A DNA stretch of 32,000 bases, taken from Candidatus Kuenenia stuttgartensis (GTDB lineage Bacteria > Planctomycetota > Brocadiia > Brocadiales > Brocadiaceae). A program made the position numbers and the translations under genes. The stretch lies in NCBI RefSeq assembly GCF_900232105.1, contig NZ_LT934425.1:2730001-2762000 (forward strand). The letters are read 5' to 3'. The notes under the pieces were generated by a model that was given only the letters and a program-made list of their open reading frames with translations, did not search any database and was not told the DNA's origin. Positions 2,105 to 18,410 of the stretch are shown piece by piece (position 1 is the first letter of the stretch; each line of letters starts with the position of its first letter).

Positions 2105-2520
2105 GGTTCACACCTTGATCAGTGATTATAAGTCGGAGTGTACGAGAGTAGCTACTATGAAATAAAGTAACACTTTAGTCTTTTGAAACTGGAAATTATC
2201 CTTTGTAGTGCGACGAGGTTCGTCGCACTATTTGAGTAGACCCTATTCCTTATCGCACAACTTTTTTTTTGGTGCGACGAACCTCGTCGCACTACATGGT
2301 AGAGACAGGTTTGAAACCTGTCTCTACTTAGATAGCTCAAATGAGGAACGAGCCGCAACCGTTTATACCAAATGCTCCACCCCTACACTACTATCCGGCA
2401 AGCAGCAGCACTATTATTGGAATTGTTCAAAAAACTAAAGTGTTATGAAATAAAAGATATTTAAAGAAGATGAAGCCAATAAACAATTATAAAAGGTAAA
2501 ATCACTAATCAAGGTGTGAC
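2105..2520. mobile_element. Non-coding MITE-like element (family A) carrying a nested second element
   Basis: Terminal inverted repeats CACCTTGATCAGTGATT (2111-2127) and AATCACTAATCAAGGTG (2500-2516). The ~65-nt left end and ~50-nt right end recur at 18556-18798. The interior 2167-2445 has its own IRs (GTAACACTTTAG / CTAAAGTGTTA) flanked by a 9-bp duplication TGAAATAAA (2158-2166 and 2446-2454). It also contains three perfect hairpins. No credible ORF. Confidence 0.65.
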
Positions 2521-2890
2521 CCTATTTTTCCAAAAGTACCCTCTTGCGGAATATCAAGGAAAATGTAATAATCCCCATTCCTTACAGACAATATACAAAA
2601 ATGACGGATTATCCATGATAAATTATTTGTTTTTGAAGAAAAAGCAATAATAGAATAAGAATGTGTAACTTTATATGGTGTTATCTATAAACTTAACAAT
2701 TACTTGTTATAGTGCGATAAAGAATTATACAAAAGCAGTCATCATGTTGCATTAGCAACACCCAGAAACGATGAAAATGGTTTTATAGCCATATCATATT
2801 GCGGTACATGTACTTAAGCTATTTTTTGTAGTCTTATTTTCGAGCCAGAATGATTATGAAACCCTCAATAAATGGATGTTATAGGGTCCT

Positions 2891-3277
2891 ATGAATGATA
2901 TTTTGGAAAAATTTGCATTTGCTCTTCTTGGAGCTTTTATTGGATATCTTGTGAGCAACCGACTCGCTATCGGAAGAGATAAAAGGAAAGAGTTTAATGA
3001 ATTGATTAATCCAATTCGTAGTGAACTCTTAGCTATTAGAAATAACCCTCGCTTCAATTTGACAGGATCCTATGGCATAACCCTATCTCTAATTTGCGAA
3101 CAGCTCCATTTTTGGAATAGACGTTCCTTTAAAAGGGCAATTGATAATTATGAGAAAAGTAAAGGTAGTGAAAACATTAAGTTAAATATAGATGGCATGG
3201 GTGGATGGGCTTACAAAGATACTGATTGGATTGTTCATGCTGCCAATGAACTCCTAAAGTATTTGAAGCCAAGGTAA
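2891..3277 (+). CDS. Hypothetical small protein with an N-terminal membrane anchor
   Basis: 128-aa ORF. Hydrophobic N-terminal helix FAFALLGAFIGYLV followed by a charged soluble region. Weak SD. I recognise no family motif. Confidence 0.5.
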   Translation: MNDILEKFAFALLGAFIGYLVSNRLAIGRDKRKEFNELINPIRSELLAIRNNPRFNLTGSYGITLSLICEQLHFWNRRSFKRAIDNYEKSKGSENIKLNIDGMGGWAYKDTDWIVHAANELLKYLKPR

Positions 3278-3304
3278 TACGAAAAAGCACTATAACCCGT
3301 CAGT

Positions 3305-3402
3305 TCAGGTAACAGCCAGGGCCGAGGCGTTTTTGTAGTTCGTTTTTATATTGAAATATTTTTGTTTTTATTGAGGTCAGTGGTAGCCCTGGCTGTTCCT
3401 GA
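3305..3402. repeat. Long-loop inverted repeat downstream of ORF 2891-3277
   Basis: Arms TCAGGTAACAGCCAGGGC (3305-3322) and GCCCTGGCTGTTCCTGA (3386-3402) are complementary apart from one indel, with a ~63-nt AT-rich spacer. Function unknown. Confidence 0.45.
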
Positions 3403-3530
3403 CTTCTATCGTTAGTCGCGACACGATGTCGCATAATTGATTGTACTAAAAGAAGATTTTCTTCTTGAGTGTACTAAGCATGTTCCTGCTTATTCCTACG
3501 TGAGCGTGCTACCATTGCGCTGACGACGGG

Positions 3531-4225
3531 GTGCGAAGCCTCACGGACAACGTACCGAATTGAGTCGAAATGGCGACAGGCAGACCCCTCCGGAAAACCT
3601 ATCCGGTTAAGGGCTAGGAACGAATGATATGATGAAAATATATGAATGTCCGCACGCATCGTCAATGAGCGACAGACCTACTAGGTTTAACAGGTCGAAG
3701 GTTATTCCCCAGTGAATAGCATGTTGGTAAAGTTGCAAGTCTCTAACGTGCTTGCACGGAACTGTAGAACCACCGGTGTCCAGGACGCATCTAAGTCATT
3801 TACAGGGTCAATTATACGGAACGTGGAAACTCAGACCTTCGCCCTATGGGCAGGCTAACCGTGAGGCATGCTGTTGGAGGACTGGGGGTGAGATGCCATA
3901 AGGAAGCGAATGCTTTTCTGTAATGGAAGAGATACCGGTTGAAATATTACCGGCTCAGTAATGAGGCTGATAGTTGGCAGGTGCCTTATTACGTGAACAT
4001 TGAATGAATCAGTTGAAAGAAGGGAACGCAAATGACGGGTGCTAAGCCTGGTGCCCCCTTCGTTTTTTTTGATATACTGACAGTCAGTTATTAACGTGAA
4101 GAAATTTATTAGCGGGTTTCTCCATAAGAGAAGCTTAAACAGGTGCTTGAGCTGTATGATGGGAAACTATCACGTACAGTTCTTAGGAGGGAATCGGGCA
4201 GCAATGCCCGTGACCTATCCGGTAC
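3531..4225 (+). ncRNA. ORF-less group II intron ribozyme (about 695 nt, no intron-encoded protein)
   Basis: 5' GUGCG at 3531. A 9-bp helix GCCUCACGG (3538-3546) / CCGUGAGGC (3859-3867) closes a ~330-nt domain I. The 34-nt domain V, GAGCUGUAUGAUGGGAAACUAUCACGUACAGUUC (4149-4182), has the AGC triad, a GAAA loop and the AC bulge of the group II consensus. Domain VI has a CGGGCA-GCAA-UGCCCG hairpin, an unpaired A and a ...GGUAC 3' end at 4225. The track shows no sense-strand ORF of 60 aa or more inside it. Confidence 0.8.
4018..4070 (+). terminator. Intrinsic-terminator-like hairpin plus T8 tract inside the intron domain IV remnant
   Basis: GAAGGG (4018-4023) pairs with CCCUUC (4056-4061), enclosing GGGUGC (4037-4042) / GUGCCC (4051-4056). 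It is followed by CG and eight T (4063-4070). The stem contains G-U pairs, so strength is uncertain. Confidence 0.35.
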
Positions 4226-4241
4226 AAAAAGGAGAAATCAT

Positions 4242-4973
4242 ATGGCGATATCGAGACAAGCAATACTAATTGGATCCCCAAGCGTAAAACCGGAACTTCC
4301 TGGCGTGACCACTGATATGGGGAATATTAAACAGTTTTTATTGTCGAATAAGGGTGGGGCTTGGAGGGCAGACGAAATAGTAACCCTTTCAGATCCCAGT
4401 TCCGCCGCTGTGGATGCGCAAATCGAATCGGCTAGGTACAAAGATTATGTTTTTATTTCTTGCTCTGGGCATGGTGAGCATCGTGTCGGAAAAGGTCTTG
4501 ATGAAACGGTAATGTATGTAAAAGAAAATGAGACTGTTTCGATTAGCAGTATAAATCCTAGAAACAAACGTCACTTGGTCATAGTCGATGTGTGTCGAAA
4601 ATTAATTAGAGTCGAGACAATGGAAGAAACGAGAGCCGCAATGAAGGCATTTATGAAAAGTGCGGCCATACCCATAGATTATAGAAAAATATTCGATGAC
4701 GCAGTAATGGCTAACCCTGAAGGTCGTATTGTTGCATATTCATGTGATATCAACCAATCTGCTGGTGACGACGGCAGTGGCGGTGTTTTTACTCAAGAGT
4801 TGTTAGCTGCCCCGAAATATTTTTCGCCTACAAACAACAATCAATATGGCATTGTCAAAATAAATGCAGCTTTTGATCAGGCAAAAACAATGACATACGC
4901 AAAAAATGCACCTCAAAGCCCTGTATTTAATGCTGGGAGACGTATGGACTTTTACCCATTTGCTATTGTTTAA
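4242..4973 (+). CDS. Stand-alone caspase-like cysteine protease (peptidase C14 fold)
   Basis: 243 aa from ATG 4242, with SD AAAGGAG 4228-4234 and a 7-nt spacer. Motif order is caspase/metacaspase-like: AILIGSP..., catalytic His in FISCSGHGEH (His codon 4470-4472) and catalytic Cys in LVIVDVCRK (Cys codon 4593-4595). The track ORF start at 4143 lies inside intron domains V/VI and is rejected. Confidence 0.75.
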   Translation: MAISRQAILIGSPSVKPELPGVTTDMGNIKQFLLSNKGGAWRADEIVTLSDPSSAAVDAQIESARYKDYVFISCSGHGEHRVGKGLDETVMYVKENETVSISSINPRNKRHLVIVDVCRKLIRVETMEETRAAMKAFMKSAAIPIDYRKIFDDAVMANPEGRIVAYSCDINQSAGDDGSGGVFTQELLAAPKYFSPTNNNQYGIVKINAAFDQAKTMTYAKNAPQSPVFNAGRRMDFYPFAIV

Positions 4974-5438
4974 ACGGTGAGAAAATGATCACAGATTACA
5001 ACAAAGACAAATGGGGGCCACTTGAACTAAAACATCTAATTTTAGATACAGAGGAATTTATTGCCTTTATAGATCATCGTAATGATTTAGACTGGATAAC
5101 AAGTAAAGAGTTTGATGCAAAAGGCCCGCAATCTCCAGAGAAGCATCACGAAATATTAAATACGGTTGCATTGTTGGAATGCAAACCAATTGTTCATCTT
5201 TCCGAAAACAACCAGTTAAATTTTAAAAGATTATTAGGTGAGGCTTTGGCAAGGAGCCTAAAGCATGATTACAAAAAGGCTTCGAGTATACTCGTCCATG
5301 CTGAAAACTTCCTTATGGATAGAGGTAAGGAAATATCGCGTCAATGGTATTTAAACCGAGCAGGTATAACCTCACTAATCATATTTGCAGTTGGTGTTCT
5401 CTTTTGGGTTTTTCGTGATTTAAGCATAAAAGTCCTAG

Positions 5439-7442
5439 CGTGAGTTTATCACGAAATAAGGTGTAAGACAAAGACATCAAGTTGCAATCCAATGATTTGT
5501 ATCGGGTTGCGACTTTTTTTGTCTAAAAAATTATGTATACACTGAATAATACTATATTTATATTGCATTATATGCCTGTATATACTATTATACACGGAGT
5601 ATTAATCTATTACGTATACACTAACAACTAATAGCCATGGCTACCATTCAATCTAAAAACTCCAGAGGTTATAAATATTGGTATATTGTCGAATCGCGGC
5701 GCGTTAACGGCAAGCCCAGGCCCATCGTCCTGGCCTATCTTGGCAAGGCAGACGATTTATTAAAACAACTGCAAGGTCTTACCGAAAAATTACGGCTCAA
5801 ATCTTATTCACATGGCGCGGTAGCCGCATTGCTAAGTGTGGCCAATGCCCTGGACGTCCCTTCCGTGATTAATAAATATATAAAGTCGCCACGGCAGTAT
5901 TGTGCTAAAAAACCTGTTCGAAATAATCTGACCGCCGGAAGTACCCTCTTGTTGGGTGCCGTGGGGAGAGTGTGTGTGCCTACCAGCAAAAGAGGATGGT
6001 GGGATTGGGCAAAGACGACTACTGCCGAATACTTACTCAGACACAGCTTGAGTAAAATAGACAGTCAGCATTTCTGGGATTTGATGGATGCACTTCCTGA
6101 AGAATCCATTGCAGAAATCGAGCGCGAATTAATTGAAAAGACATTTAAAACATACAACCTTCAAAGCGACACACTGTTTTTTGATACAACCAATTTTTTC
6201 ACGTATATCGACACAACTAATCTGCGATGCACTATTGCCCGGCGGGGGAAAAACAAACAAAAGCGATACGATCTCAGGCAGGTCGGGTTGGCGATGGTCG
6301 TTACACGTAACGACATGATACCGTTGTTTCACCATACCTATCAGGGGAACATGGCGGATGCAAAGGTGTTCAGCGCGGTTCTTGAGACGATAAAAGACAG
6401 GATGACCGGATTAGGTTTCGACAGCAAAAAGCACACTATTGTTTTTGATCGTGGAAACAATTCCATGGACAATATGGCTATTGTAGAGAGATTGGCATTG
6501 CATTACGTTGGAGCGCTTACACCGTATCATCACAAGCAGTTGGTAGGGGATGCCATGTGTAATTTCAGGGAATATGACGTTGACGGCAGTAAGATACAGG
6601 TGTACCATGACAAACGGGTTATTTGGGGGCAGGAAAGAACCGTTGTCGTATTTATTTCCGAGAAATTAAAGGTTGGGCAATTAAGGGGAATGTCTCAGTC
6701 TCTGGAAAAGGCAGAACATCAGTTAAAGCTCTTACAGCAGCATCTGTGTAATCCAAAGGGAAAGATGCGGGACAAAGAGGGTCTGGAGGATACGATAAGA
6801 AGTGTAGTGAAATGTCAATTTGCGAAGGATGTTATCGATTGGTCGTTAAAAGAGGTATCTGAAGGCAAGTTTCAATTGAATTTTTCAATCGACCAGAAAA
6901 AGCTCGAAGAAATAGAAGGGGAACTGGGGTTCAGGATTCTTATGACAGACCATCACGATTGGGATACCGCGGACATTATAAAAGCCTACTATGGGCAATC
7001 AAAAATTGAACATGCCTTTAGAAATCTCAAGAACCCCTATCACCTTGCTTTAAAACCGCAATTTCACTGGACGGATCAGAAAATCAGGGTGCATTTTTTT
7101 ATTTGCGTCCTCGGATACCTAATGGCGGCGATTGTGTGGTATCAGGCAAAAGCGCACGCACAATTTAGTGGAACGTTAGATACCCTGTTAGACACCCTTA
7201 ATAATATAAGGCTTTCTGCTATGCTTGAAGAAACAAAGGCCAGAGGGAGAGTTAAGGCTACCTACAAATTGGAAGAAATGTCCGACAAGGAATCTCTGTT
7301 GATGAATGCGTTAGGCATTATGGATTTCCACAAACATCGGCTGAAACTTCAAGGACTCAGTGTATACAATTGATGTTGTGCTTAACGCATTGACTGTATT
7401 TATGTTACGTTGCTTCATGCCTTATTTTGTGATAAACTCACG
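5439..7442 (+). mobile_element. IS1634-group (IS4-related) insertion sequence, about 2.0 kb
   Basis: Terminal IRs CGTGAGTTTATCACGAAATAAGG (5439-5461) and CCTTATTTTGTGATAAACTCACG (7420-7442) match at 22/23 positions. Flanked by CTAG at 5435-5438 and 7443-7446. Contains a single transposase ORF. Confidence 0.85.
5637..7373 (+). CDS. IS1634-family DDE transposase
   Basis: 578 aa. The N-terminus KNSRGYKYWYIVESRRVNGKPRPIVLAYLG is characteristic of IS1634-group transposases. Candidate DDE residues lie in LFFDTTNF, IVFDRGNNS and YGQSKIEHAFRNLK. Confidence 0.85.
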   Translation: MATIQSKNSRGYKYWYIVESRRVNGKPRPIVLAYLGKADDLLKQLQGLTEKLRLKSYSHGAVAALLSVANALDVPSVINKYIKSPRQYCAKKPVRNNLTAGSTLLLGAVGRVCVPTSKRGWWDWAKTTTAEYLLRHSLSKIDSQHFWDLMDALPEESIAEIERELIEKTFKTYNLQSDTLFFDTTNFFTYIDTTNLRCTIARRGKNKQKRYDLRQVGLAMVVTRNDMIPLFHHTYQGNMADAKVFSAVLETIKDRMTGLGFDSKKHTIVFDRGNNSMDNMAIVERLALHYVGALTPYHHKQLVGDAMCNFREYDVDGSKIQVYHDKRVIWGQERTVVVFISEKLKVGQLRGMSQSLEKAEHQLKLLQQHLCNPKGKMRDKEGLEDTIRSVVKCQFAKDVIDWSLKEVSEGKFQLNFSIDQKKLEEIEGELGFRILMTDHHDWDTADIIKAYYGQSKIEHAFRNLKNPYHLALKPQFHWTDQKIRVHFFICVLGYLMAAIVWYQAKAHAQFSGTLDTLLDTLNNIRLSAMLEETKARGRVKATYKLEEMSDKESLLMNALGIMDFHKHRLKLQGLSVYN

Positions 7443-7959
7443 CTAGGAGAATCCGCATTTATTATCAGTCTTGCAATGGTTTCTGGCGGGCTAGGGGCAT
7501 TTTTATCAATTATTTTCCGAATGGGAAAAGAATCCATAGATTGTCTTGCAGGGAAAAAGCTCCATGAACTCGAAAGCATGTATCGGATAATAGCTGGAAT
7601 GTTATCGGCCCTTTTGGCCTCATTGCTTGTGCGATCTGAAATGTTTTTGCCTGCTTTTTCTAAAATGAATCATATTGAATTGTCAATAATTGCTATAGGT
7701 TTCATCGCTGGTATGAGTGAAAGATTTGCTCCTTCAATACTATCAAAATTAGAAAAGAATAAAAAAATTGTATAACAATGCTAATTAACGCGCCGGTTAT
7801 TGGCAGCGTTATACATTAATTAAGGTTGAAAAAGAAGGAATGTGTCATAATGAAAAGAGCTCGGCAAATCCCTATATTCGCTAATTGAATTGCCCGGCTT
7901 TAAAATACAGTCCATGGCCTTGGAAGAGAGAAACAAGAAGGATTGAAAGGTGAATGTGA

Positions 7960-10955
7960 ATGACATCTGAAAGACAAATAGAAGAACTTTAATCAATAAT
8001 CTTAAAGACCTTAAATACACATACCGCGATGATATTCTGGATAAGGTCTCGCTTGAAGCAAATTTCAGAGAGCACTTTCAAAGACTCAATAAAGTAAATC
8101 TGAATGATTCTGAATTTGCACGACTTAGAGACGAAATTATTACTGCTGATGTATTCACAGCAGCAAAAACATTGCGTGAAATAAATACTTTTCGCAGAGA
8201 TGATGATACACCCCTGCAATATACCCTGGTTAATATCAAGGACTGGTGCAAAAACGAGTTCGAAGTCATCAATCAACTACGAATAAATACTGAAAATAGT
8301 CATCATCGTTATGATGTCATCTTACTGATTAATGGTGTTCCGGCTGTTCAAATTGAGCTTAAAACTCTTCAGGTAAAACCCAAAAGGGCGATGGAGCAGA
8401 TTGTTGAATACAAAAACGACCCCGGAAATGGTTTTACTAATTCACTTCTCTGTTTTATGCAACTTTTTATTGTCAGTAACGAAAACAATACTTATTACTT
8501 CGCTAATAACCATAAAGACCATTTTGCTTTCAATGCGGATGAAAGATTTTTGCCCATCTATCAGTTAGCTGATGAAGCCAATAAGAAAATCACCCATTTG
8601 CATGATTTCGCCGAAAGGTTTCTTGCAAAATGTACACTGGGACAAATGATCAGCCGTTATATGGTACTAGTGGTTAGCGAACAGAAATTAATGATCATGC
8701 GGCCGTATCAAATTTACGCTGTCAAAGCTATTGTGGACTGTATTCATCAAAACAGAGGAAATGGCTACATCTGGCACACCACCGGAAGTGGAAAAACCCT
8801 TACATCTTTCAAGGCATCAACACTTCTAAAAGATAATCCCGATATTGAAAAATGCTTATTCGTGGTTGACTGCAAAGACCTCGATAAACAGACCCGAGAT
8901 GAGTTCAACAAGTTTCAGGAAGGTTGTGTTGAAGAAAACACCAATACGGAAACACTGGTACAGCGGTTGTTATCAGAAGACTATGCTGATAAAGTGATTG
9001 TTACCACTATCCAGAAACTTGGTCTTGCCCTTGATGAAAACAGTAAAAGAAACCAAAACAGTAAGCAAAAAGGCAGACTGACCTTTAAAGAAAGGTTAAT
9101 GCCGCTTCGTGATAAAAGGATTGTCATTATTTTTGATGAATGCCACCGCGCACAGTTTGGCGATAATCATAAAGCCATCAAAGAGTTCTTCCCCAAAGCA
9201 CAGCTTTTCGGTTTTACCGGAACGCCTATATTTGAGGAAAACGCAACTTATAAACAAGTGGATGGTACCGTAGGCTCTTACAAGACAACCAAAGATATTT
9301 TTGAAAAACAACTGCACGTTTACACCATTACTCACGCCATTGACGATGGCAATGTCCTTCGTTTCCATGTGGATTATTTCAAGCCGGATAGCAAGAAAAA
9401 GGTTAAAACAGCAGATACCATCAGTAAAAAAGCCGTTGTGGATTCGATTCTTGACAAACATGACTCTGCCACTAATGCAAGACGATTCAACGCATTATTG
9501 GCGACAGGCTCAATAAATGACGCTATAGAGTATCATGAACTCTTCAAAGAGATACAAAAAAAGCGTGTACAAGAGAATGAAGATTTTACGCCATTAAATG
9601 TTGCCTGTGTCTTCTCACCTCCTGCCGAAGGAAATAAAGATGTCCAGCAGATTCAGGAGGATTTGCCGCAGGAAAAAGCGGACAACGAACAAGAACCGGA
9701 TAAAAAGAAAGAAGCTCTAAAAGCAATTATTGTTGATTATAACAAGCAATACGGGACAAACCATCGTATTTATGACTTTGATTTGTACTATCAGGATGTA
9801 CAGAAGAGAATCAAAGACCACAAGTATAGCAATGCCGATTATCCGCATAAAAACAAGATCGATTTGGTTATCGTTGTCGATATGCTGTTAACCGGCTTTG
9901 ACTCAAAGTATCTGAATACCCTTTATGTTGATAAAAATTTAAAGCAACATGGATTAATACAGGTTTTTTCTAGAACAAACCGGGTGTTGAATGACACAAA
10001 ACCCTATGGAAATATCCTTGATTTTAGAATGCAAACCAAAGAGGTCGATGAGGCCATCGCACTCTTTTGCGGTCAGGGTACAGAACGGGCTAAAGAAATA
10101 TGGTTGGTTGACCCGGCTCCTGAAGTAATTGAAAAATACAAAAAAGCAGTAGCCGCATTAGGTGATTTTATGCAAGCAAGCGATTTGGTATGCGAACCAC
10201 AAGAAGTTTATAATCTTAAAGGAGATACTGCGCGAATTAACTTCATTAACCGCTTTAAAGAAATACAACGTGTGAAAACTCAGTTAGACCAATACACCGA
10301 TCTAACACCTGAACAAAAAGCGCATATTGAAACACTTATTCCCGAAGACCAATTACGTTCGTTCAGGAGCTCTTATTTAGAAACAGCCAAACAGTTAAAA
10401 GAAAGACAGCAAAAAGAAGGAATCAATGCAGATCCCTCTGTGCAGCAACTGGATTTTGAATTTGTACTGTTTGCCTCTGCTGTAATAGACTACGATTACA
10501 TTATGAAGCTGATTTCCCGTTTCACACAAAACAAGCCGGGCAAACAGAAAATGACACGGGAGCAACTCATCGACCTGCTTAGCTCAAGCGCCAATTTGAT
10601 AGATGAACGTGAGGATATTGTGGCGTATATTAATAGTTTGGAAGTGGGTAAGGGTTTAGACGAAAAGGAAATAAAAGAAGGTTATCAGAAATTTAAAACT
10701 GAAAATGCCGAAAAAGACATGGCGGAGGCAGCCTGCAAGCATGGGCTAGAGCCGGAAGCATTACAATCATTTGTAGATGCAATTATTGACCGAATGGTTT
10801 TTGACGGCGAAAAACTCAGCGATCTGATGGAACCACTTGGATTGAGTTGGAAAGACAGAACAAAAAACGAACTGGAATTGATGGAAGATTTAATACCGTT
10901 GTTGAAAAAACTTGCCGGTGGGCGCGAGATTGCTGGGTTGACAGCGTATGAGTAA
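7960..10955 (+). pseudogene. hsdR: Type I restriction enzyme R subunit (EcoR124I-like HsdR) with an N-terminal frameshift
   Basis: Uninterrupted ORF 8172-10955 (927 aa from TTG). It has the nuclease region YDVILLINGVPAVQIELK and helicase motifs HTTGSGKT, IIFDECHR, GFTGTP and QVFSRTNR. The HsdR-like N-terminus continues upstream in the same frame to 7971 with no start codon. ATG 7960 (MTSERQIEEL, then stop) is in the neighbouring frame. Adding one T to the T-run 7988-7990 gives MTSERQIEELLINNLKDLKYTYRDDILDK... Confidence 0.8.
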
Positions 10956-11844
10956 TCAATTATCAATAGAAAAAATAATATACACAATCCGAGACTTTCA
11001 GGTGATGCTTGATCGTGATCTTGCCGTACTGTATGACGTGGAGACAAGGGCTATCAATCAGGCAGTGAAGCGGAATATGGGCAGATTCCCTACTGAATTT
11101 TGTTTTCAGCTATCGGATGAAGAATTTGAAAATTGGAAATCACAGATTGTGATTTCCAATGAGGATAAGATGGGACTCAGAAGACCGCCATACGCCTTCA
11201 CAGAGCAAGGCGTGGCAATGCTATCGGCAGTCTTACGGAGCGAAACTGCCGTAAAAGTAAGCGTCAATATTATGAAAGCCTTTATAGCGATGAGACGATT
11301 TTTGACGGAGAACGCTTATATATTTAAACGCATAGATACTATTGAGCAAAAACAAATAAGAACAGATAGTAAAGTCGATGAAAACAGTAAAAAAATTGAA
11401 ACTGTTTTGAATGCAATAGAAGCGAAAGCGTTACCGCAACGGCAGGGCATTTTTTATGAAGGTCAAGTATTTGATGCTTATACATTTGTGTCTGATTTGA
11501 TACGCTCGGCAAAGTCTTCGATTATCCTTATCGACAATTATATTGACGAATCAATACTTACTTTTTTCACAAAAAAGAAGCGAGATGTTACGGTTACAAT
11601 CTATACAAAAAAAATCTTAAAACAATTCGCCTTGGATATAAAAAAATTTAACGAACAGTATCCTTTACTTTCAGTTAAAGAGTTCTCCAAATCACACGAT
11701 AGATTTCTCATAATAGATGAAGATGCTATTTATCACATCGGTGCTTCACTGAAAGATCTGGGGAAAAAATGGTTCGCATTTTCCAAAATGGAATTCTCAG
11801 TGGCGGAAATGCTGATGAAAATTAAAGGACAAGAAGAGAAATGA
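10948..11844 (+). CDS. ORF6N (KilA-N-related) DNA-binding domain protein with a PLD/HKD-like C-terminal domain, embedded in the R-M operon
   Basis: 298 aa. The start overlaps the hsdR stop (ATGAGTAA). The N-terminal pattern IRDFQVMLDRDLAVLYDVETRAINQAVKRNMGRFPTEFCFQLS...RRPPYAFTEQGVAMLSAVLRS is typical of ORF6N. The C-terminus has IILIDNYID ... HDRFLIID ... IGASLKDLGKK, resembling an HxKx4D...GSxN motif with K replaced by R. Confidence 0.8.
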   Translation: MSNQLSIEKIIYTIRDFQVMLDRDLAVLYDVETRAINQAVKRNMGRFPTEFCFQLSDEEFENWKSQIVISNEDKMGLRRPPYAFTEQGVAMLSAVLRSETAVKVSVNIMKAFIAMRRFLTENAYIFKRIDTIEQKQIRTDSKVDENSKKIETVLNAIEAKALPQRQGIFYEGQVFDAYTFVSDLIRSAKSSIILIDNYIDESILTFFTKKKRDVTVTIYTKKILKQFALDIKKFNEQYPLLSVKEFSKSHDRFLIIDEDAIYHIGASLKDLGKKWFAFSKMEFSVAEMLMKIKGQEEK

Positions 11845-12249
11845 ACCACGAAAAATGGCGTTGAATATTGGCTGGCACGTGATTTACAGCACTTGCTGGG
11901 ATATACCAAATGGGACAATTTTTTGAATGTAATCTCCAAGGCGAAAACAGCCTGTGAAGTCTCCGGGCATGAAATCCAAGACCATTTTGCCGACGTCGGG
12001 AAAATGGTTGATCTGGGGTCGGGCAGCCAGCGGGAAATTAACGATATCATGCTTACCCGCTATGCCTGTTATCTGATTGCTCAGAACGGAGACCCTGCCA
12101 AACAGGAGATTGCCTTCGCTCAGACCTATTTTGCTATGCAGACACGCAAGGCGGAATTGATTGAGCAACGCTTACTTGAATCCGAGAGGGTATCAGCCCG
12201 AAAAAAGCACCAAATAAGAGAACACAGCGCTCTCGTGGTTAACGGGTAG
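11845..12249 (+). pseudogene. Truncated copy of dinD, covering roughly residues 21-137 of the full-length paralog
   Basis: Starts in frame immediately after the ORF6N stop with ...KNGVEYWLARDLQHLLGYTKWDNF. About 90% nucleotide identity to 14541-14900 over a 150-nt stretch aligned by hand. Homology ends after ...SERVSARKK near 12205. It lacks the N-terminus and the C-terminal half. Confidence 0.85.
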
Positions 12250-12280
12250 CAAATTAAAAGTTTTATTGAGGTTTGATATT

Positions 12281-12556
12281 ATGGCTAAGATCAATGTATT
12301 AGATAAAGAAATCGCAATATATTCTTACAATGATGATGACTACATTTCTTTAACGGATATGGTTAAAAACATTGAAAACGGACTTTCTCTGATTGAAAAA
12401 TGGCTCCGCAATAAAAACACTATCGAATTTATGGGAATTTGGGAAGAAATGTATAACCCGGATTTTAAATCCACCGAATTCGAGGGAATTAAAAATCAGG
12501 CAGGCTTGAACAGGTTTGTTTTATCTGTGAAACAGTGGGTAGAAAAAGAGGAATGA
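12281..12556 (+). pseudogene. 3'-truncated KilA-N domain gene
   Basis: ATG 12281 is preceded by GAGG. MAKINVLDKEIAIYSYNDDDYISLTDM...WLRNKNTIEFMGIWEEMYNPDFKSTEFEGIKNQAGLNRFVLSVKQWVEK matches the N-terminal ~90 aa of the ~250-aa KilA-N proteins common in R-M loci. The ORF stops at the TGA of the ATGAACCACGG repeat. Confidence 0.7.
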
Positions 12557-12595
12557 ACCACGGAAGACCTAGCGCGGCCTTTGGCCGCAACCAAA
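12553..12595 (+). repeat. 43-nt junction repeat, copy 1 (ATGAACCACGGAA...GCGCGGCCTTTGGCCGCAACCAAA)
   Basis: 40/43 identical by hand alignment to 16536-16578. Contains the hairpin GCGGCC-TTT-GGCCGC (12574-12588). Confidence 0.85.
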
Positions 12596-12622
12596 AAGGT
12601 GATTTTTAGTTTATTATAAAGT

Positions 12623-14269
12623 ATAGTAGTATCCTCGTAAATAGTAATCAGACAATTTGGAGGACACTACTTATGAATAAGTTGATGGAATTATATCGAG
12701 ACAGGATCGTGGGTGCAATAAGCGGTCTGTACAGGATTCGTTTTCGCGGGACATTGCGGTGGTTGGCCAGTGAGCGTGGGATGGGAACATTCATGAACCA
12801 AGCGAGAATTCTGCTTAAGGATTTTTCCGGTTGGGTCAATGGGCTTACGGCACAGGTGCGAGACAGTTGTGAATCGCGGGCGAAAGATTTGGGTATCGAG
12901 GTGCGGTATTTGATGAGCAGCGGTGTTGATAAGGAGAAGTTGGCTCGCCAGATCGCGGCGGATAAGAGGATTACGGAAGGTTCCATCTGCCTGTTGAGTG
13001 TGGTAGAGCCTTGTATTGCGCCGATGGTCAAGGGCAACAAGGCCAGCAAGAAGCTCGAGTTGGTAATGGCGCCCCGCAAGTGTGTCTTTGTGTATCATTA
13101 TTTTAATGATCCAGTGTTTGGTTTTGGTCATGTTCGTATCCAGAGTTGGGCGCCGTTTAATATTTTCATTTGTCTCAATGGTCGTCATTGGCTGGAGCGG
13201 CAACTTCAGAAGCAAGGTATTGATTATGTTAAGGACGGCAACTGTTTTGTGCGTATAGAGGATATTGCGGCTGCGCAGGTTCTGCTCCATGAGCAGCTTA
13301 AGACTGACTGGGCGAAGCTGCTGAACGGGCTTGCGTTAGGCAGTTGCCCGGCATTGTCGCAGATTCTTCGTCCGTTGGAACCGGAGTATTACTGGTCTGC
13401 GGATGAGACGGAGTGGGCGACGGACATCATGTTTAAATCGGTTGAGGCATTGGAGGAGTTGTTTCCATCGTTTGTTCATCATGCGATGCGGGTTTGCGAC
13501 AGTTCTTCGGTGATGAAGTATTTGGGTAGGCGTAACCTTGCAGGCGCTGCCCCTGATGAGGTTATCAGCGACTATCGAAGACGCTATGAAGGTATACGGG
13601 TCAAGCACAGTGTGAATTATAATTCAGTGAAGATGTATAACAAGAGCGGTAGTCTCTTGCGTATTGAGACAACGATCAATAATACGCGGGACTTTAAGGT
13701 CTTTCGGAGTCCCAATGATGATGAAGGCAAACCGGCGTCATGGCAGAAGATGCGTAAGGGCGTAAGCGATCTTCATCGACGGTGTGAGGTGAGCCAACAA
13801 TGCAATGATCGTTATGGGGATGCTTTGGCGGCGGCTCAGGTAGAGGAGAAACTGAAAGAAGTGGTGAGCAGCGCTTGTAACAAGGTTGTCAAAGAGGGCA
13901 AGAGGTATCGAGGTTTGAATCCCTGGCAGCAGGATGATTACCAGATGCTGATGTTCCTGTCCAAAGGCGAAAACGCGATAAATGGATTCCGCAACCATGA
14001 TTTGCGTAAGTGGCTTTACCGGGAATCCGAACAATCCGGCAAGGATCAGCAAAAGAAATATTCCGGACGAACGACCCGACGGATAAAGATGCTGCGGGCA
14101 CACGGTCTAATCCGCAAAGTTCCGAGGGCCAACCGCTATGTTTTGACGGAGAAAGGCCAGAAGTTCTCTTGTTCACTGATGACCGCTTCAGCCCTTGATA
14201 TTAAAGCACTTACGGAAATGGCGGCATGAAAAACACGCATAAAAAACAAGAAATTGATGGATAGTAGTA
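12623..14269 (+). mobile_element. Candidate insertion carrying the 518-aa gene (unclassified)
   Basis: 9-bp direct repeats ATAGTAGTA at 12623-12631 and 14261-14269. The interior is visibly more G+C-rich than the flanks: hand counts give 36/60 at 12721-12780 and 34/60 at 13321-13380, against 15/60 at 12601-12660. The last ~85 nt, including the gene's 3' end, recur as a degenerate solo copy at 16650-16735. No terminal inverted repeats found. Confidence 0.45.
12673..14229 (+). CDS. Conserved-looking hypothetical protein of unknown function with a C-terminal winged-helix-like segment
   Basis: 518-aa uninterrupted ORF, with GGAGG 8 nt upstream of the ATG. The C-terminus RRIKMLRAHGLIRKVPRANRYVLTEKGQ resembles a wHTH. 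I could not identify a DDE, HUH, recombinase, RT or nuclease signature by eye. Confidence 0.7.
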   Translation: MNKLMELYRDRIVGAISGLYRIRFRGTLRWLASERGMGTFMNQARILLKDFSGWVNGLTAQVRDSCESRAKDLGIEVRYLMSSGVDKEKLARQIAADKRITEGSICLLSVVEPCIAPMVKGNKASKKLELVMAPRKCVFVYHYFNDPVFGFGHVRIQSWAPFNIFICLNGRHWLERQLQKQGIDYVKDGNCFVRIEDIAAAQVLLHEQLKTDWAKLLNGLALGSCPALSQILRPLEPEYYWSADETEWATDIMFKSVEALEELFPSFVHHAMRVCDSSSVMKYLGRRNLAGAAPDEVISDYRRRYEGIRVKHSVNYNSVKMYNKSGSLLRIETTINNTRDFKVFRSPNDDEGKPASWQKMRKGVSDLHRRCEVSQQCNDRYGDALAAAQVEEKLKEVVSSACNKVVKEGKRYRGLNPWQQDDYQMLMFLSKGENAINGFRNHDLRKWLYRESEQSGKDQQKKYSGRTTRRIKMLRAHGLIRKVPRANRYVLTEKGQKFSCSLMTASALDIKALTEMAA

Positions 14270-14315
14270 CGGAATATCCAGAAAGGCTGGAAGAGAATTG
14301 AAACACGGATGCTTC

Positions 14316-14482: not shown

Positions 14483-15328
14483 ATGGAAAATGATTTGATT
14501 TACACAATGACCGCAACCTTTGAAGGGCATGCTCAAACAACAGAAAACGGGGTTGAATACTGGCTTGCGCGAGACTTGCAACAGTTGTTGGGCTATAACG
14601 AATGGCGTAACTTCCTCAATGTCATCACTAAGGCGAAAACAGCCTGTGATGTATCCGGACATGCCGTCGTCAACCATTTTGTTGATGTCAACAAAATGGT
14701 TGATCTGGGATCCGGCAGCAAGCGGGAAATCAGCGACATCATGCTTACCCGCTATGCCTGTTATCTGATTGCTCAGAACGGAGACCCGGCCAAACAGGAG
14801 ATTGCCTTTGCGCAGACCTATTTTGCCATGCAGACGCGCAAAGTGGAATTAATAGAACAACGCTTGCTTGAATCAGAGCGGGTTTCAGCCCGTAAAAAGC
14901 TCTCTGCCACAGAAAAGGAATTATCGGATGTGATCTATGAACAAACAGGCGGCAATCAGAATTTTGCGCTGATTCGCAGTAAAGGTGATCATGCTTTGTT
15001 CGGAAAAACCACGCAGGCCATGAAAGCCCAATGGCGGGTTCCTGACAACAGGCCTCTGGCGGATTTTGCTCCCACGATTATTCTAAAAGCCAAGGATTTC
15101 GCAACGGAAATCACCATCCACAATGCCCGTGAAAACAAGATGAAAAATGAGTCTGAAATATCTGGCGAGCATGTGACCAACAATAGGGCAGTGCGGGACA
15201 CCCTGCTGAATCGAGGCATCCGTCCGGAAAGCCTGCCACCGGCTGAAGATGACAAAAAGGTAGAGCGCCGTCTGGATACGGCTCAGAAGAAAACAATCAA
15301 AAACCCTGATAGACTGGAAGAATTATGA
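14483..15328 (+). CDS. dinD: DNA damage-inducible protein D homolog
   Basis: 281 aa. Colinear resemblance to E. coli DinD, for example ...LLGY..W..F..VI.KAK.AC..SGH...DHF.....MV.IGS...R...DI.LSRYACYL..QNGDPAKP.IA..QTYFA.QTR. SD GAGGAG lies upstream. Confidence 0.9.
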   Translation: MENDLIYTMTATFEGHAQTTENGVEYWLARDLQQLLGYNEWRNFLNVITKAKTACDVSGHAVVNHFVDVNKMVDLGSGSKREISDIMLTRYACYLIAQNGDPAKQEIAFAQTYFAMQTRKVELIEQRLLESERVSARKKLSATEKELSDVIYEQTGGNQNFALIRSKGDHALFGKTTQAMKAQWRVPDNRPLADFAPTIILKAKDFATEITIHNARENKMKNESEISGEHVTNNRAVRDTLLNRGIRPESLPPAEDDKKVERRLDTAQKKTIKNPDRLEEL

Positions 15329-16539
15329 ATCACAAAAGGCACGAAAAGCACGAAAAAAAACAATTGGTGCCAAAGCTGAGATTTCCTGAGTTTCGGGATA
15401 AGGGGGAGTGGCAAGAAAATGAACTGAAGCAGTTTTTAACAGAAAGTCGCATCTTGGGTAGCAAGGGAAATACTGCAAAGAAAATCACAGTAAAACTTTG
15501 GGGAAAAGGCGTTTTTGAGAAGAACGATGAAATCCAAGGTAGCATCAATACGCAATATTACCGAAGAACAACAGGTCAGTTCATTTATAGCAAACTTGAT
15601 TTTCTCAATCAGGCATTTGGTCTTATTCCTGAACACTTAGACAGTTATGAATCCACCGTTGATCTTCCATGTTTCGATATAAGCCAAGGTATCAGTCCTG
15701 TTTTTTTGCTTGAATATGTAAAGCGAAAAGATTTTTACGAAAAACTAGGTGAAACAGCAGATGGTAGTAGAAAAGCAAGGCGAATACACGCTGATACGTT
15801 TCTATCTTTTCCTATCTTTATGCCTTCGCCTCAAGAACAACAAAAAATCGTCGATTGCCTCACCACCTTCGATGAACTCATCACCGCCGAAGCCGGGAAG
15901 CTCGAAGCCTACAAAGCCCATAAAAAAGGGCTGATGCAAAAGCTCTTCCCTGCCGAAGGGGAAACCATGCCGGAATGGCGGTTCCCTGAGTTTCGGGGTA
16001 AGGGGGAGTGGGAGCATTATGTAATTAACGATATTGCAAAGGTTACTACAGGGAATAAAGACACTCAAAATAAATTTGATGATGGAGAATATCCATTTTT
16101 TGTAAGATCACAAACTGTTGAGAGAATAAACTCTTATTCGTATGATGGCGAAGCAATATTAACTTCCGGTGATGGTGTCGGTGTTGGCAAAAATTTTCAT
16201 TACATTATTGGAAAGTTTGACTTTCATCAAAGGGTTTATTGTATATATGATTTTGAAAAAACTGTTTCAGGACATTTTGTTTATCATTATTTTACTGAGC
16301 ATTTTTACAAAAGAGTAATGCAATTAAGTGCTAAAAATTCCGTTGATTCAGTAAGAATGGCAATGATTACAGAAATGCCTATTAGCTTGCCAAGCAATGA
16401 AGAACAACAGAAAATTACAACTTGCCTCTCTGCCCTCGATAACCTCATCACCGCCCAGTCTAAGAAAATCGACACCCTCAAAATCCATAAAAAAGGCTTG
16501 ATGCAGGGGCTTTTCCCGTCTGCTGAGGTGAATATATGA
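15325..16539 (+). CDS. hsdS: Type I R-M specificity subunit
   Basis: 404 aa. Two half-repeats, each beginning (L/W)RFPEFR(D/G)KGEW and ending in the conserved helices QQKI..CL...D.LITA...K......HKKGLMQ.LFP. The start overlaps the dinD stop (ATGA). Confidence 0.92.
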   Translation: MNHKRHEKHEKKQLVPKLRFPEFRDKGEWQENELKQFLTESRILGSKGNTAKKITVKLWGKGVFEKNDEIQGSINTQYYRRTTGQFIYSKLDFLNQAFGLIPEHLDSYESTVDLPCFDISQGISPVFLLEYVKRKDFYEKLGETADGSRKARRIHADTFLSFPIFMPSPQEQQKIVDCLTTFDELITAEAGKLEAYKAHKKGLMQKLFPAEGETMPEWRFPEFRGKGEWEHYVINDIAKVTTGNKDTQNKFDDGEYPFFVRSQTVERINSYSYDGEAILTSGDGVGVGKNFHYIIGKFDFHQRVYCIYDFEKTVSGHFVYHYFTEHFYKRVMQLSAKNSVDSVRMAMITEMPISLPSNEEQQKITTCLSALDNLITAQSKKIDTLKIHKKGLMQGLFPSAEVNI

Positions 16540-16802: not shown

Positions 16803-18410
16803 ATGAATGATACAATGCAAAAACAATTAGGTGCAACCCTCTGGAAGATTGCCGACCAACTCCGCGGCGCTATGAATGCCGATGACTTCCGCGATTATAT
16901 GCTCTCTTTCCTGTTTTTACGCTACCTTTCAGACAACTATGAAGTTGCATAAAAAAAAGAGCTTGGAAAAGATTACCCGAAGCTGAAAGAAGACGACAAA
17001 AGAACGCCCCTCTCAGTCTGGTATAAAGAAAACAAGGATGATACGGCTGTATTTGAAAAGCAGATGCGCCGTAAAATCCACTATGTAATCAAGCCCGACT
17101 ATCTCTGGCGCAGTATATACGAGCTGGCAAGAACCCAAAGCGATGACCTCCTTAAAATCTTGCAAGCCGGGTTTAAGCATGTTGAAAATGACTCCTTTGA
17201 GAGTACATTTCAGGGCTTATTTTCTGAAATCAACCTGGACTTTGAAAAACTTGGCAAAAACTATTCTTTCCGTAACGCAAAACTCTGTACGATTGTAACC
17301 AAAATCGCTGAAGGGCTTTCCGGGTTTTCTACCGAGAGTGATATTCTAGGCGATGCTTATGAATACTTAATCGGTCAATTTGCTTCCGGTTCAGGGAAAA
17401 AAGCCGGAGAGTTTTATACACCACAGCAAATTTCAACCATACTGTCCCGAATTGTTACATTGGATAGTCAAAATCCGAGTTCCGGTAAAAAGAAAAAACT
17501 TAAAAAAGTCCTCGATTTCACCTGTGGTTCAGGTTCACTTCTTTTAAATGTAAGGAAACAACTTGGTCCCAATAGTATCGGGCAGATATATGGGCAGGAA
17601 AAAAACATTACCACTTATAACCTTGCAAGAATGAATATGCTGCTCCATGGGTTAAAGGATTCTGAGTTTCAAATTCATCATGGAGATTCACTTCTCAACG
17701 ACTGGGACATATTAAATGAAATGAACCCAGCTAAAAAGCTTGAAAGTGATGCTGTGGTTGCCAATCCTCCTTTCAGTTATCGTTGGGAACCAAACGAGGC
17801 TTTAGCCGACGATTTCAGGTTTAAAAGTTATGGCCTTGCACCTAAATCCGCAGCAGACTTCGCCTTTTTGCTTTATGGTTTTCATTTTTTAAGCGATGAA
17901 GGAACCATGACAATTATTCTGCCTCATGGTGTTCTTTTTCGCGGAGGCGTTGAAGAACGAATCCGCACAAAATTACTCAAAGATGGAAATATTGATACAG
18001 TCATAGGCTTACCGGCTAATCTTTTCTTCTCAACGGGTATTCCGGTATGTATCCTCGTACTGAAAAAATGCAAAAAGTTTGACGATGTTTTATTCGTCAA
18101 TGCCAGTGAATACTTTGAAAAAGGTAAACGGCAGAATTTTCTTTCAGAAGAACACATCGATAAAATCATAGATACATATCAATACCGAAAAGAAGAAGAG
18201 CGGTATTCCCGATGCGTTTCGATGGAAGAAATAAAGAAGAACGAATACAATCTGAACATTTCGCGGTATGTGAGTACGGCAGAACAGGAAGAAGCTATTG
18301 ATATCAAAAAAGTCAATAAAGACTTAGCTGAAATTGAGAAGACGATAACCAAGGCAAAGAAAACGCATAATCAGTTTCTTAAAGAACTTGGCTTAGCAGA
18401 GTTACCATGA
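16803..18410 (+). pseudogene. hsdM: Type I R-M N6-adenine DNA methyltransferase subunit with an in-frame TAA
   Basis: ATG 16803 follows SD AAGGAG. The HsdM N-terminal pattern is MNDTMQKQLGATLWKIADQLRGAMNADDFRDYMLSFLFLRYLSDNYEVA, then TAA at 16950-16952, and the same frame continues KKELGKDYP.... The longest intact ORF, 17064-18410, carries motif I DFTCGSGSLLL and motif IV VVANPPFS. Confidence 0.85.

Follow-up and report, generated by a model that had tools for sequence, protein, structure and literature searches.

The source of the 32,000-nucleotide (nt) stretch of DNA analysed here, hereafter the window, is the anammox bacterium Candidatus Kuenenia stuttgartiensis (Planctomycetota), in a strain resembling MBR1, and the proteins that the window encodes match entries of strain MBR1. 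Downstream of glnS it carries two genes, designated A and B, that form the subject of this report. A encodes a 243-amino-acid (aa) caspase-like protease (SOH05027.1), while B, which starts 11 nt past the stop codon of A, encodes a protein with four predicted transmembrane (TM) helices that is interrupted in this strain by an insertion sequence (IS) and is deposited as fragments (SOH05028.1 and SOH05030.1/KSMBR1_2543). The same island holds a Type I restriction-modification (R-M) system (hsdR, hsdS and hsdM, all downstream of the pair and on the same strand) together with ORF6N and Bro-N/DinD-like genes. An initial annotation, made from the letters of the DNA, had described a minimal C14-like protease with an SGHG His and a DVCRK Cys, a second gene whose reconstructed product joins a soluble N-terminal region to four TM helices, the splitting of that gene by an IS, and a defence-island setting beside Type I R-M genes; these descriptions stand after the analyses reported below.

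The product of A carries the motifs CSGHGEH and VDVCRK, which contain the catalytic residues His77 and Cys118, respectively. Its sole domain is Peptidase_C14 (Pfam PF00656), matched over residues 6-212 at E=1e-11 and 45.4 bits (cut-off 21.4), and the protein has neither a signal peptide nor a TM segment, nor any prodomain, p10 extension, repeat, sensor or C-terminal domain. The AlphaFold2 model of A (predicted local distance difference test, pLDDT, 89.7; predicted template modelling score, pTM, 0.87) is disordered only within a linker at residues 126-143, just past the catalytic Cys and at the position occupied by the caspase intersubunit linker. When this model was searched with Foldseek, caspase-7, MALT1, metacaspase-9 (AtMC9), caspase-8 and CED-3 were recovered with a probability of 1.0, with template modelling scores of about 0.6 for caspase-7, MALT1, AtMC9 and CED-3 and E-values of about 1e-9 for the first three. 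Similarly, a profile search of PDB sequences placed plant and yeast metacaspases nearest to A (AtMC4 at E=2.8e-7), and the motifs L-x-G-x-x-x-D, SGHG, D-x-C and C-x-x-x-Q of A align with those of the metacaspases (LRGCVND and DSC in AtMC4). Residues H77, C118, D25 and D116 are invariant in 61 homologues of A and in 27 caspases linked to a B gene, down to 21% identity. The C14-like core with a His and a Cys that the initial annotation had put forward is thus recovered as a caspase fold with an invariant His/Cys dyad, and, judged by its sequence and predicted structure, A is a bona fide C14 metacaspase-like protease of apparently active type, forming a clade of its own that is defined by obligate pairing with the B family. 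Two acidic S1 positions confer specificity for Arg or Lys in metacaspase and paracaspase structures, and D25 and D116 of A, which we take from published metacaspase and MALT1 structures to lie in the S1 pocket, are of this kind; A is predicted to cut after basic residues (Arg or Lys). Specificity for Arg has been demonstrated experimentally for the caspase of type IV Thoeris (bioRxiv 10.1101/2024.10.24.620036).

When the two parts of B are joined across the IS, the reading frame is maintained and a 260-aa protein results that is 98.8% identical to the product of the intact gene in a related Kuenenia contig (L001) and 100% identical to an intact public protein (P0001). Hydropathy and a confident AlphaFold2 model of the restored protein (pLDDT 87.4, pTM 0.73) delineate a soluble region of ~120 aa followed by TM helices at about 121-142, 153-176, 188-214 and 228-241. 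Within the model, an N-terminal alpha/beta domain of ~110 aa, with a small three-stranded sheet and helices at residues about 15-92, precedes a long stalk helix (96-142) that continues into TM1, and the C-terminal end consists of a short non-helical hinge followed by an amphipathic helix (245-257). Because there are four TM helices and no signal peptide, the model would imply an in-in topology in which the N-domain, the TM2-TM3 loop and the C-terminal tail are all cytoplasmic; Lys and Arg residues, counted from the sequence by inspection, are enriched in these putative cytoplasmic segments.

Conservation within B was measured over 27 paired homologues of 25-99% identity. Residues K81, R119, G168, R176, E194, R198, G202, G240 and E243 are invariant, and positions 82, 113 and 244 (R82, R113 and R244 in Kuenenia) are basic in at least 90%, for a total of seven conserved basic positions; G165, G168, G178, G202 and G240 are likewise at least 90% conserved. 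The best-conserved parts of the protein are the TM3 and TM4/hinge regions, and the conserved cytoplasmic stretches comprise a loop, R176-x-G178...H191-x-x-E194, and the hinge, G240-x-S-E243-R244. Specifically, R176, within the R-x-G loop between TM2 and TM3, and R244, within the hinge, lie in non-helical, predicted cytoplasmic stretches of the model. A TM region conserved to this degree typically belongs to a functional bundle, not to a simple anchor. In three family members (P0141, P0153 and P0186) two tandem copies of the N-domain precede the four-TM region and this duplication shows the N-domain to be an autonomous module.

The B family is large and currently without annotation. Of 1.84 billion cluster representatives (50% identity), 3,493 matched the B profile at E<=1e-3, with 484 of them reaching E<=1e-30; most of the best 150 matches are near full length. 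B itself has no match in Pfam, NCBIfam (E<=1), PADLOC, PHROGs, a PDB sequence profile search or BFVD, and a Foldseek search of its model against the PDB gave a best match of E=0.3. Neither the N-domain alone nor 36 distant homologues of B revealed a consistent Pfam family.

The conservation of the pairing was assessed with hidden Markov models built from the A and B alignments, with which the open reading frames (ORFs) of 53 loci, and then of three more, were scanned. Co-occurrence of the two families across genomes, a check named in the initial annotation, was found in abundance: the loci in which a B homologue (25-99% identity) directly adjoins a caspase gene on the same strand number 31 once redundancy is removed and span several phyla, with co-occurrence in the deepest part of the B family sampled rather than exhaustively surveyed. 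Alignments of distant B homologues (A3 and A4) were discarded as too diverse to find loci with, and a third homologue search gave at least 27 proteins. Hosts of the pair include Kuenenia, Syntrophaceae, Geobacteraceae, Methylococcaceae, Methylobacter, Methylomonas, Marinomonas, Pseudomonas, Sulfurimonas, Aliarcobacter and Vibrio, as well as many metagenomes. In all but one of 26 measured pairs the distance between the genes lies between about -110 and +14 nt (the exception being 129 nt, in L036), the larger overlaps being uncertain since ORF starts were called mechanically. The order is A-B in the close clades (about 47% B identity and above) and B-A in most deeper clades (25-45%), and the pairwise identities of A and of B are correlated (Pearson r=0.745, 351 pairs). 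At least one partner swap is evident, in Sulfurimonas, where B is 54% identical but its A only 28%. Three caspases first thought to be unpaired each proved to have a B gene immediately downstream, and a caspase is absent at only two loci with informative flanks (L012 and L021), where the B-like proteins are both longer and more divergent. Since the genes adjoin one another in 31 loci, since their linkage has outlasted a reversal of gene order and since their identities are correlated, A and B are a true, old and conserved functional pair.

Variations on the pair were also observed. In L021 (2005-7011) the gene for a divergent 336-aa B-like protein has no adjacent caspase; a 1,064-aa nSTAND1 NTPase gene and a 124-aa ORF lie upstream of it, and the B module may be used there with a partner other than a caspase. 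In human-gut metagenome contigs (L049-L051), two divergent C14 genes surround a single B to give caspase-B-caspase trios. No consistent third gene was found beside the pair, the immediate neighbours varying in every locus. The gene for a 128-aa protein upstream of A, which the initial annotation had offered as a possible co-occurring partner, was rejected as a third component; its homologues are found only in Kuenenia (locus L001).

The features of the island are listed in Table 1. The inserted element belongs to the IS1634 family by virtue of its DDE transposase, which matches the family model at E=2e-84 and 284 bits (cut-off 100), its inverted repeats and its target-site duplication. The inverted repeats are 23 nt long with one mismatch (CGTGAGTTTATCAC[G/A]AAATAAGG) and occur nowhere else in the window. 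Contig L001 preserves the empty site. Of the two flanks of the element in the window, one aligns to this site at 99.5% and the other at 94.4%, and the two alignments meet with exactly the 4-nt overlap that the CTAG duplication predicts, which confirms the boundaries of the element. The called ORF of the 5' part of B ends at 5443 by running into the IS. The insertion certainly cuts B after TM1 and inactivates it, and the module is dead in strain MBR1.

Table 1. Coordinates of the A-B pair, the inserted element and the adjacent Type I R-M genes (positions in the window).
Feature	Position	Strand	Description	Evidence
Gene A	4242..4973	+	243-aa minimal metacaspase-like Peptidase C14 protease	ORF list and direct reading, Pfam, AlphaFold2, Foldseek
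Gene B, 5' part	4985..5438	+	Codons 1-151 plus 1 nt: N-terminal alpha/beta domain, stalk helix, TM1	
Left target-site duplication	5435..5438		CTAG, 4 bp	Empty site in L001
IS1634-family insertion sequence	5439..7442	+	2,004 bp	Inverted repeats and NCBIfam transposase match
IS terminal inverted repeats	5439-5461 and 7420-7442			
IS transposase gene	5637-7373		578 aa	NCBIfam transpos_IS1634 (NF033559)
Right target-site duplication	7443..7446		CTAG, 4 bp	Empty site in L001
Gene B, 3' part	7447..7775	+	Rest of codon 152 to stop: TM2-TM4, loop, hinge, C-terminal amphipathic helix	
hsdR (Type I R-M)	about 7953-10955	+		Pfam HSDR_N, ResIII, EcoR124_C
ORF6N	10948-11844	+	Between hsdR and hsdS	
hsdS (Type I R-M)	15325-16539	+		Pfam Methylase_S
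hsdM (Type I R-M)	17064-18410	+		Pfam N6_Mtase

The initial annotation had judged this insertion to fit counter-selection of a toxic gene, a suggestion that the data do not support. Firstly, Ding and Adrian (2020; PMC7709395) reported 20 full copies of an IS1634-family transposase in MBR1 and none in KUST or CSTR1, along with >200 transposase genes per Kuenenia genome. Secondly, intact 260-aa alleles of B are found on about 141 contigs, as opposed to 11 with the disrupted 152-aa fragment, such that the intact form predominates in other Kuenenia populations. Thirdly, the island is otherwise damaged: relative to L001, hsdR has suffered a 1-nt deletion near codon 11 (GAAGAA-CTTTAATC vs GAAGAATCTTTAATC) that shifts the reading frame, the next in-frame start being TTG at 8172, and the HsdR of the adjacent R-M system is probably inactive in MBR1 unless the deletion is an assembly error. 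Because the IS is multicopy, intact alleles are commoner and the island is damaged elsewhere, the insertion is poor evidence for counter-selection; the hsdR frameshift, together with an insertion of ~2.1 kb relative to L001, speaks instead for general decay of this strain, an enrichment culture, or for IS activity in it. The latter insertion (12250-14314) includes a 518-aa ORF (12673-14229) that matches no family, and on its flanks the Bro-N/DinD-like gene is partially duplicated (11893-12249 vs 14483-15328); the insertion may be another mobile element. Recurrent pseudogenisation of B, considered for contigs LQAG-LQAJ, was rejected: in L024, L027, L031 and L034 (LQAJ, LQAG, LQAI and LQAH, respectively) B, and in L034 also A, is split by single-base homopolymer indels with zero substitutions, which are sequencing errors.

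Several further features of the locus were noted. Rfam places group II intron domains D1-D4 at 3474-3614 (+; 66.6 bits) and a domain V/VI region at 4147-4223 (+; 60.6 bits), which together point to a group II intron that is about 750-950 bp long and lacks an ORF. The intron occupies a GC-rich, ORF-free stretch between the 128-aa gene and the start of the caspase gene, ends 19 nt 5' of ATG 4242, and occurs in L001 as well. A longer, 276-aa ORF of A from GTG 4143 was rejected as spurious because it overlaps the 3' end of the intron. Two pairs of direct repeats (2097-2166/18548-18615, 90% identical, and 2476-2531/18754-18809, 95%) flank an island of ~16.5 kb that contains the 128-aa gene, the intron, A, the interrupted B and the Type I R-M genes; these repeats may be the borders of the island or a repeated intergenic element. 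A scan of 2500-8300 for promoters and terminators yielded sites no more numerous than in shuffled sequence.

Beyond Kuenenia, too, the pair often has defence genes or mobile elements for neighbours. In the window and in L006, L013, L016 and L018, which represent five independent lineages, a Type I R-M locus either contains the pair or adjoins it, in varied arrangements: the pair is directly upstream of hsdR and on the same strand in the window, the R-M genes are opposite in strand to it in L006, and the gene orders are hsdM-ORF6N-hsdS-B-A-Abi_C in L013 and hsdM-NTase_sub_bind-hsdS-B-A-AAA_15-...-hsdR in L016, with remnants of hsdS and hsdR around a reverse transcriptase gene and the cassette in L018. 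Fragments of the hsdR N-terminus (L016 7548-7799; L018 5662-5988 and 3190-3543), 85% and 56% identical to the HsdR of L016, adjoin the cassette, an arrangement that suggests repeated insertion or recombination of the B-caspase cassette at the 5' end of hsdR. Within 3566-5988 of L018-L020, the gene for the reverse transcriptase (RVT_1, 704 aa) immediately precedes the hsdR remnant and the cassette; PcfJ and NERD genes belong to the same element.

Other loci place the pair in different company. Its neighbours in a Pseudomonas syringae defence island are SIR2/DUF3800, Hachiman (HamA plus a helicase) and an OLD-family ATPase; in Pseudomonas RC3H12, GmrSD and Phd are nearby, and in L003 a NACHT-metallophosphatase protein adjoins it. 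In Vibrio diazotrophicus the pair occupies a prophage accessory slot, with early genes on one side and the lysis/terminase cassette on the other, and one pair locus is an IMG/VR viral contig with a polyvalent protein. When the neighbours at 15 further loci were pooled, matches to ThsB-TIR, PDC-S60/S65, PD-T4-2, DRT, mREase IV, RmrA and AriA were found, as were MADS, integrases and RHS toxins, plus housekeeping genes. Taken qualitatively, neighbourhoods of this kind are the mark of a conflict system that is accessory and moves horizontally.

Comparison with characterized systems places the pair among caspase-family protease modules of abortive infection, with the partner family B as the new element. 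With bacterial gasdermins (bGSDMs) and their proteases it shares a protease gene adjoining a membrane-acting partner in defence islands and, as proposed here, a logic in which proteolytic loss of an inhibitory segment would lead to permeabilisation and abortive infection. Gasdermins, however, are soluble beta-sheet pore precursors, whereas B is an integral, helical four-TM protein that has no Pfam match and recovers no gasdermin in Foldseek, in line with the view in the initial annotation that the partner is not gasdermin-like; A, in addition, is without sensor or repeat domains. The EACC1-caspase systems are also two-gene pairs, combining a caspase-superfamily protease with a small, conserved, Gly-rich TM protein bearing alpha+beta extensions, and their gene order, TM gene then caspase gene, is that of the deeper B-A clades described here. 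They differ in that EACC1 has a single TM helix, while B has four plus the 110-aa N-domain and no NCBIfam match (E<=1), and in that their caspases carry variable C-terminal effector domains, while A is a bare catalytic domain. A scores only 21.3 bits, and the tested deep-clade partners 19-30 bits, against the NCBIfam model caspase_w_EACC1 (NF047832; cut-off 140).

Type IV Thoeris is likewise a two-gene operon with a small caspase-like protease, which prefers Arg at P1 and executes abortive infection (Rousset et al., 2025). In that system, however, a TIR protein that generates a signal is the partner, and N7-cADPR activates the protease, whereas B is a four-TM protein in which no TIR or nucleotide-related domain was found in Pfam, PADLOC or NCBIfam, and TIR genes are only occasional neighbours, at other loci. 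The metacaspases, orthocaspases and paracaspases (MEROPS C14B) resemble A in fold, His-Cys dyad, motifs and acidic S1 residues, but A is just 243 aa long and has none of their prodomains, p10 extensions or repeats. Lastly, the TM effectors of CBASS (Cap14, Cap15 and S-4TM), Pycsar (PycTM) and SLATT are, like B, small multi-TM proteins encoded beside an enzymatic partner, and are thought to kill by disrupting membranes; they are activated by a nucleotide ligand rather than a protease, the N-terminal alpha/beta domain also sets B apart, and no similarity of B to them was found in Pfam or PADLOC searches. Neither A nor B, nor the 128-aa protein, matched any PADLOC-DB v2.0.0 model at E<=1. The pair is therefore neither a gasdermin, nor an EACC1-caspase, nor a type IV Thoeris system, and no defence pair of a caspase and a multi-TM protein is described in the literature searched, in which subscription journals are poorly covered, so that absence there is not proof.

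Together, these data suggest that A and B probably constitute a self-contained, two-gene abortive-infection (cell-suicide) module directed against phage. As to how such a module would act, the reading that we favour, tentatively and with less than even confidence, is that A cleaves B and thereby converts it into a membrane-permeabilising bundle. Under this reading, A would be a cytoplasmic metacaspase-like cysteine protease cutting after Arg or Lys, and B would span the inner membrane with its two termini on the cytoplasmic side and a four-TM bundle rich in invariant Gly and charged residues. A phage-derived trigger would activate A, which would then cut B within a segment exposed to the cytoplasm. 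The foremost candidate sites are R176, between TM2 and TM3, and R244, in the SER hinge that precedes the C-terminal helix, with the dibasic K81-R82 of the N-domain as a further candidate. Cleavage would lift autoinhibition, the TM bundle would permeabilise the membrane, and infection would be aborted: the logic would be that of the gasdermins, the effector an unrelated one. This model is favoured because of the Gly-rich, charged TM bundle, the Arg residues in exposed hinges and the co-evolving pairing, and the B-like protein beside an nSTAND1 NTPase in L021 would fit B as an effector open to other sensors.

Several points weigh against this reading. That A cleaves B is something we infer, and neither component contains an obvious sensor domain. 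The conserved Arg residues of B could be topogenic or structural instead, and B shows no detectable similarity to known pore formers among the families, profiles and folds searched. Moreover, the minimal caspase-like proteases of type IV Thoeris are promiscuous, Arg-specific executioners (bioRxiv 10.1101/2024.10.24.620036), a precedent by which a TM effector is not required. The link of the pair to defence neighbours is itself qualitative: several loci (e.g., L007 and L047) have only housekeeping neighbours, and tblastn of three B proteins against deposited phage and plasmid records detected no homologue.

A reversal of roles is a serious if rather doubtful possibility, about as plausible as cleavage of B by A, which is only slightly preferred. 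In such an arrangement B would be a membrane sensor or scaffold whose N-domain detects phage-induced membrane events or a phage protein; B would then oligomerise and activate A by induced proximity, and A, promiscuous and specific for Arg/Lys, would degrade essential cytoplasmic proteins. Oligomerisation on a scaffold is what activates MALT1, which is among the closest structural matches of A. No sensor domain is present in A itself, whereas the N-domain of B is conserved, modular and tandemly duplicated in some members, and the caspase-B-caspase trios would fit a scaffold serving two proteases. The proteases of both type IV Thoeris and the type III-B PCaspase system are promiscuous, Arg-specific executioners (bioRxiv 10.1101/2024.10.24.620036; PMC13434031), and the logic of a membrane sensor that activates its protease was proposed for the EACC1-caspase systems, in which the conserved TM helix bears a glycine patch (Kaur et al., 2020; PMC7159879); B, too, has conserved TM glycines. 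Set against these observations, the N-domain of B is well conserved, unlike many hypervariable phage sensors, and one B-like protein is paired not with a caspase but with a STAND NTPase, itself a typical sensor.

A role outside defence, in which A regulates or processes B within a membrane channel or in stress signalling, or in which the pair is a selfish, toxin-antitoxin-like addiction module, is unlikely. Non-immune roles have also been proposed for bacterial metacaspases and orthocaspases, the link between the pair and phage is one that we infer, B matches none of the PADLOC defence-protein models, and some loci offer housekeeping neighbours only. The distribution of the pair, however, is patchy over unrelated phyla and appears to reflect horizontal transfer; the pair resides in variable islands, in a prophage and on a viral contig, recurs beside many different defence genes, and is dispensable in Kuenenia MBR1. 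Still less probable is that the pair forms an accessory, back-up arm of Type I R-M, as PrrC does with EcoprrI, such that the R-M complex, or its inhibition by phage anti-restriction proteins, triggers killing by A and B. The recurrence in or beside Type I R-M loci in five lineages and the duplicated 5' fragments of hsdR around the cassette in L016 and L018 would agree with such an arm, but about 26 of the 31 paired loci have no R-M genes in their flanks, among them those of P. syringae, the Vibrio prophage and Sulfurimonas, and unrelated defence genes are known to accumulate in Type I R-M operons, which act as hot spots. Finally, fortuitous adjacency of two functionally unrelated genes is effectively refuted by 31 paired loci as opposed to two unpaired, by starts and stops that overlap or abut, by linkage that survived an inversion of order, and by correlated divergence.

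The A-B pair is therefore a well-supported and experimentally tractable candidate for an undescribed defence module, the function of which is proposed here from its genomic and structural context. For the MBR1 genome itself the consequences are limited, because the module is inactivated there; the wider interest lies in the two families. Caspase-family proteases are known in bacterial immunity from gasdermin activation, from Craspase/PCaspase cascades and from type IV Thoeris, and the pair would add a fourth architecture, that of a bare metacaspase locked to a previously unannotated integral membrane family, a sizeable and unexplored protein space for which there is now a clear genomic hypothesis. 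It is conceivable, though we hold the idea with more doubt than confidence, that the B family as a whole is a widespread class of proteolytically gated four-TM killers, carried with a metacaspase as a portable cassette that lands in R-M operons and defence islands. If B activates A, the pair would be an instance of membrane sensing via proximity-induced caspase activation, as postulated for the EACC1-caspase systems; if, as we tentatively favour, cleaved B forms a pore, then protease-gated membrane killing would have arisen independently of the gasdermins.

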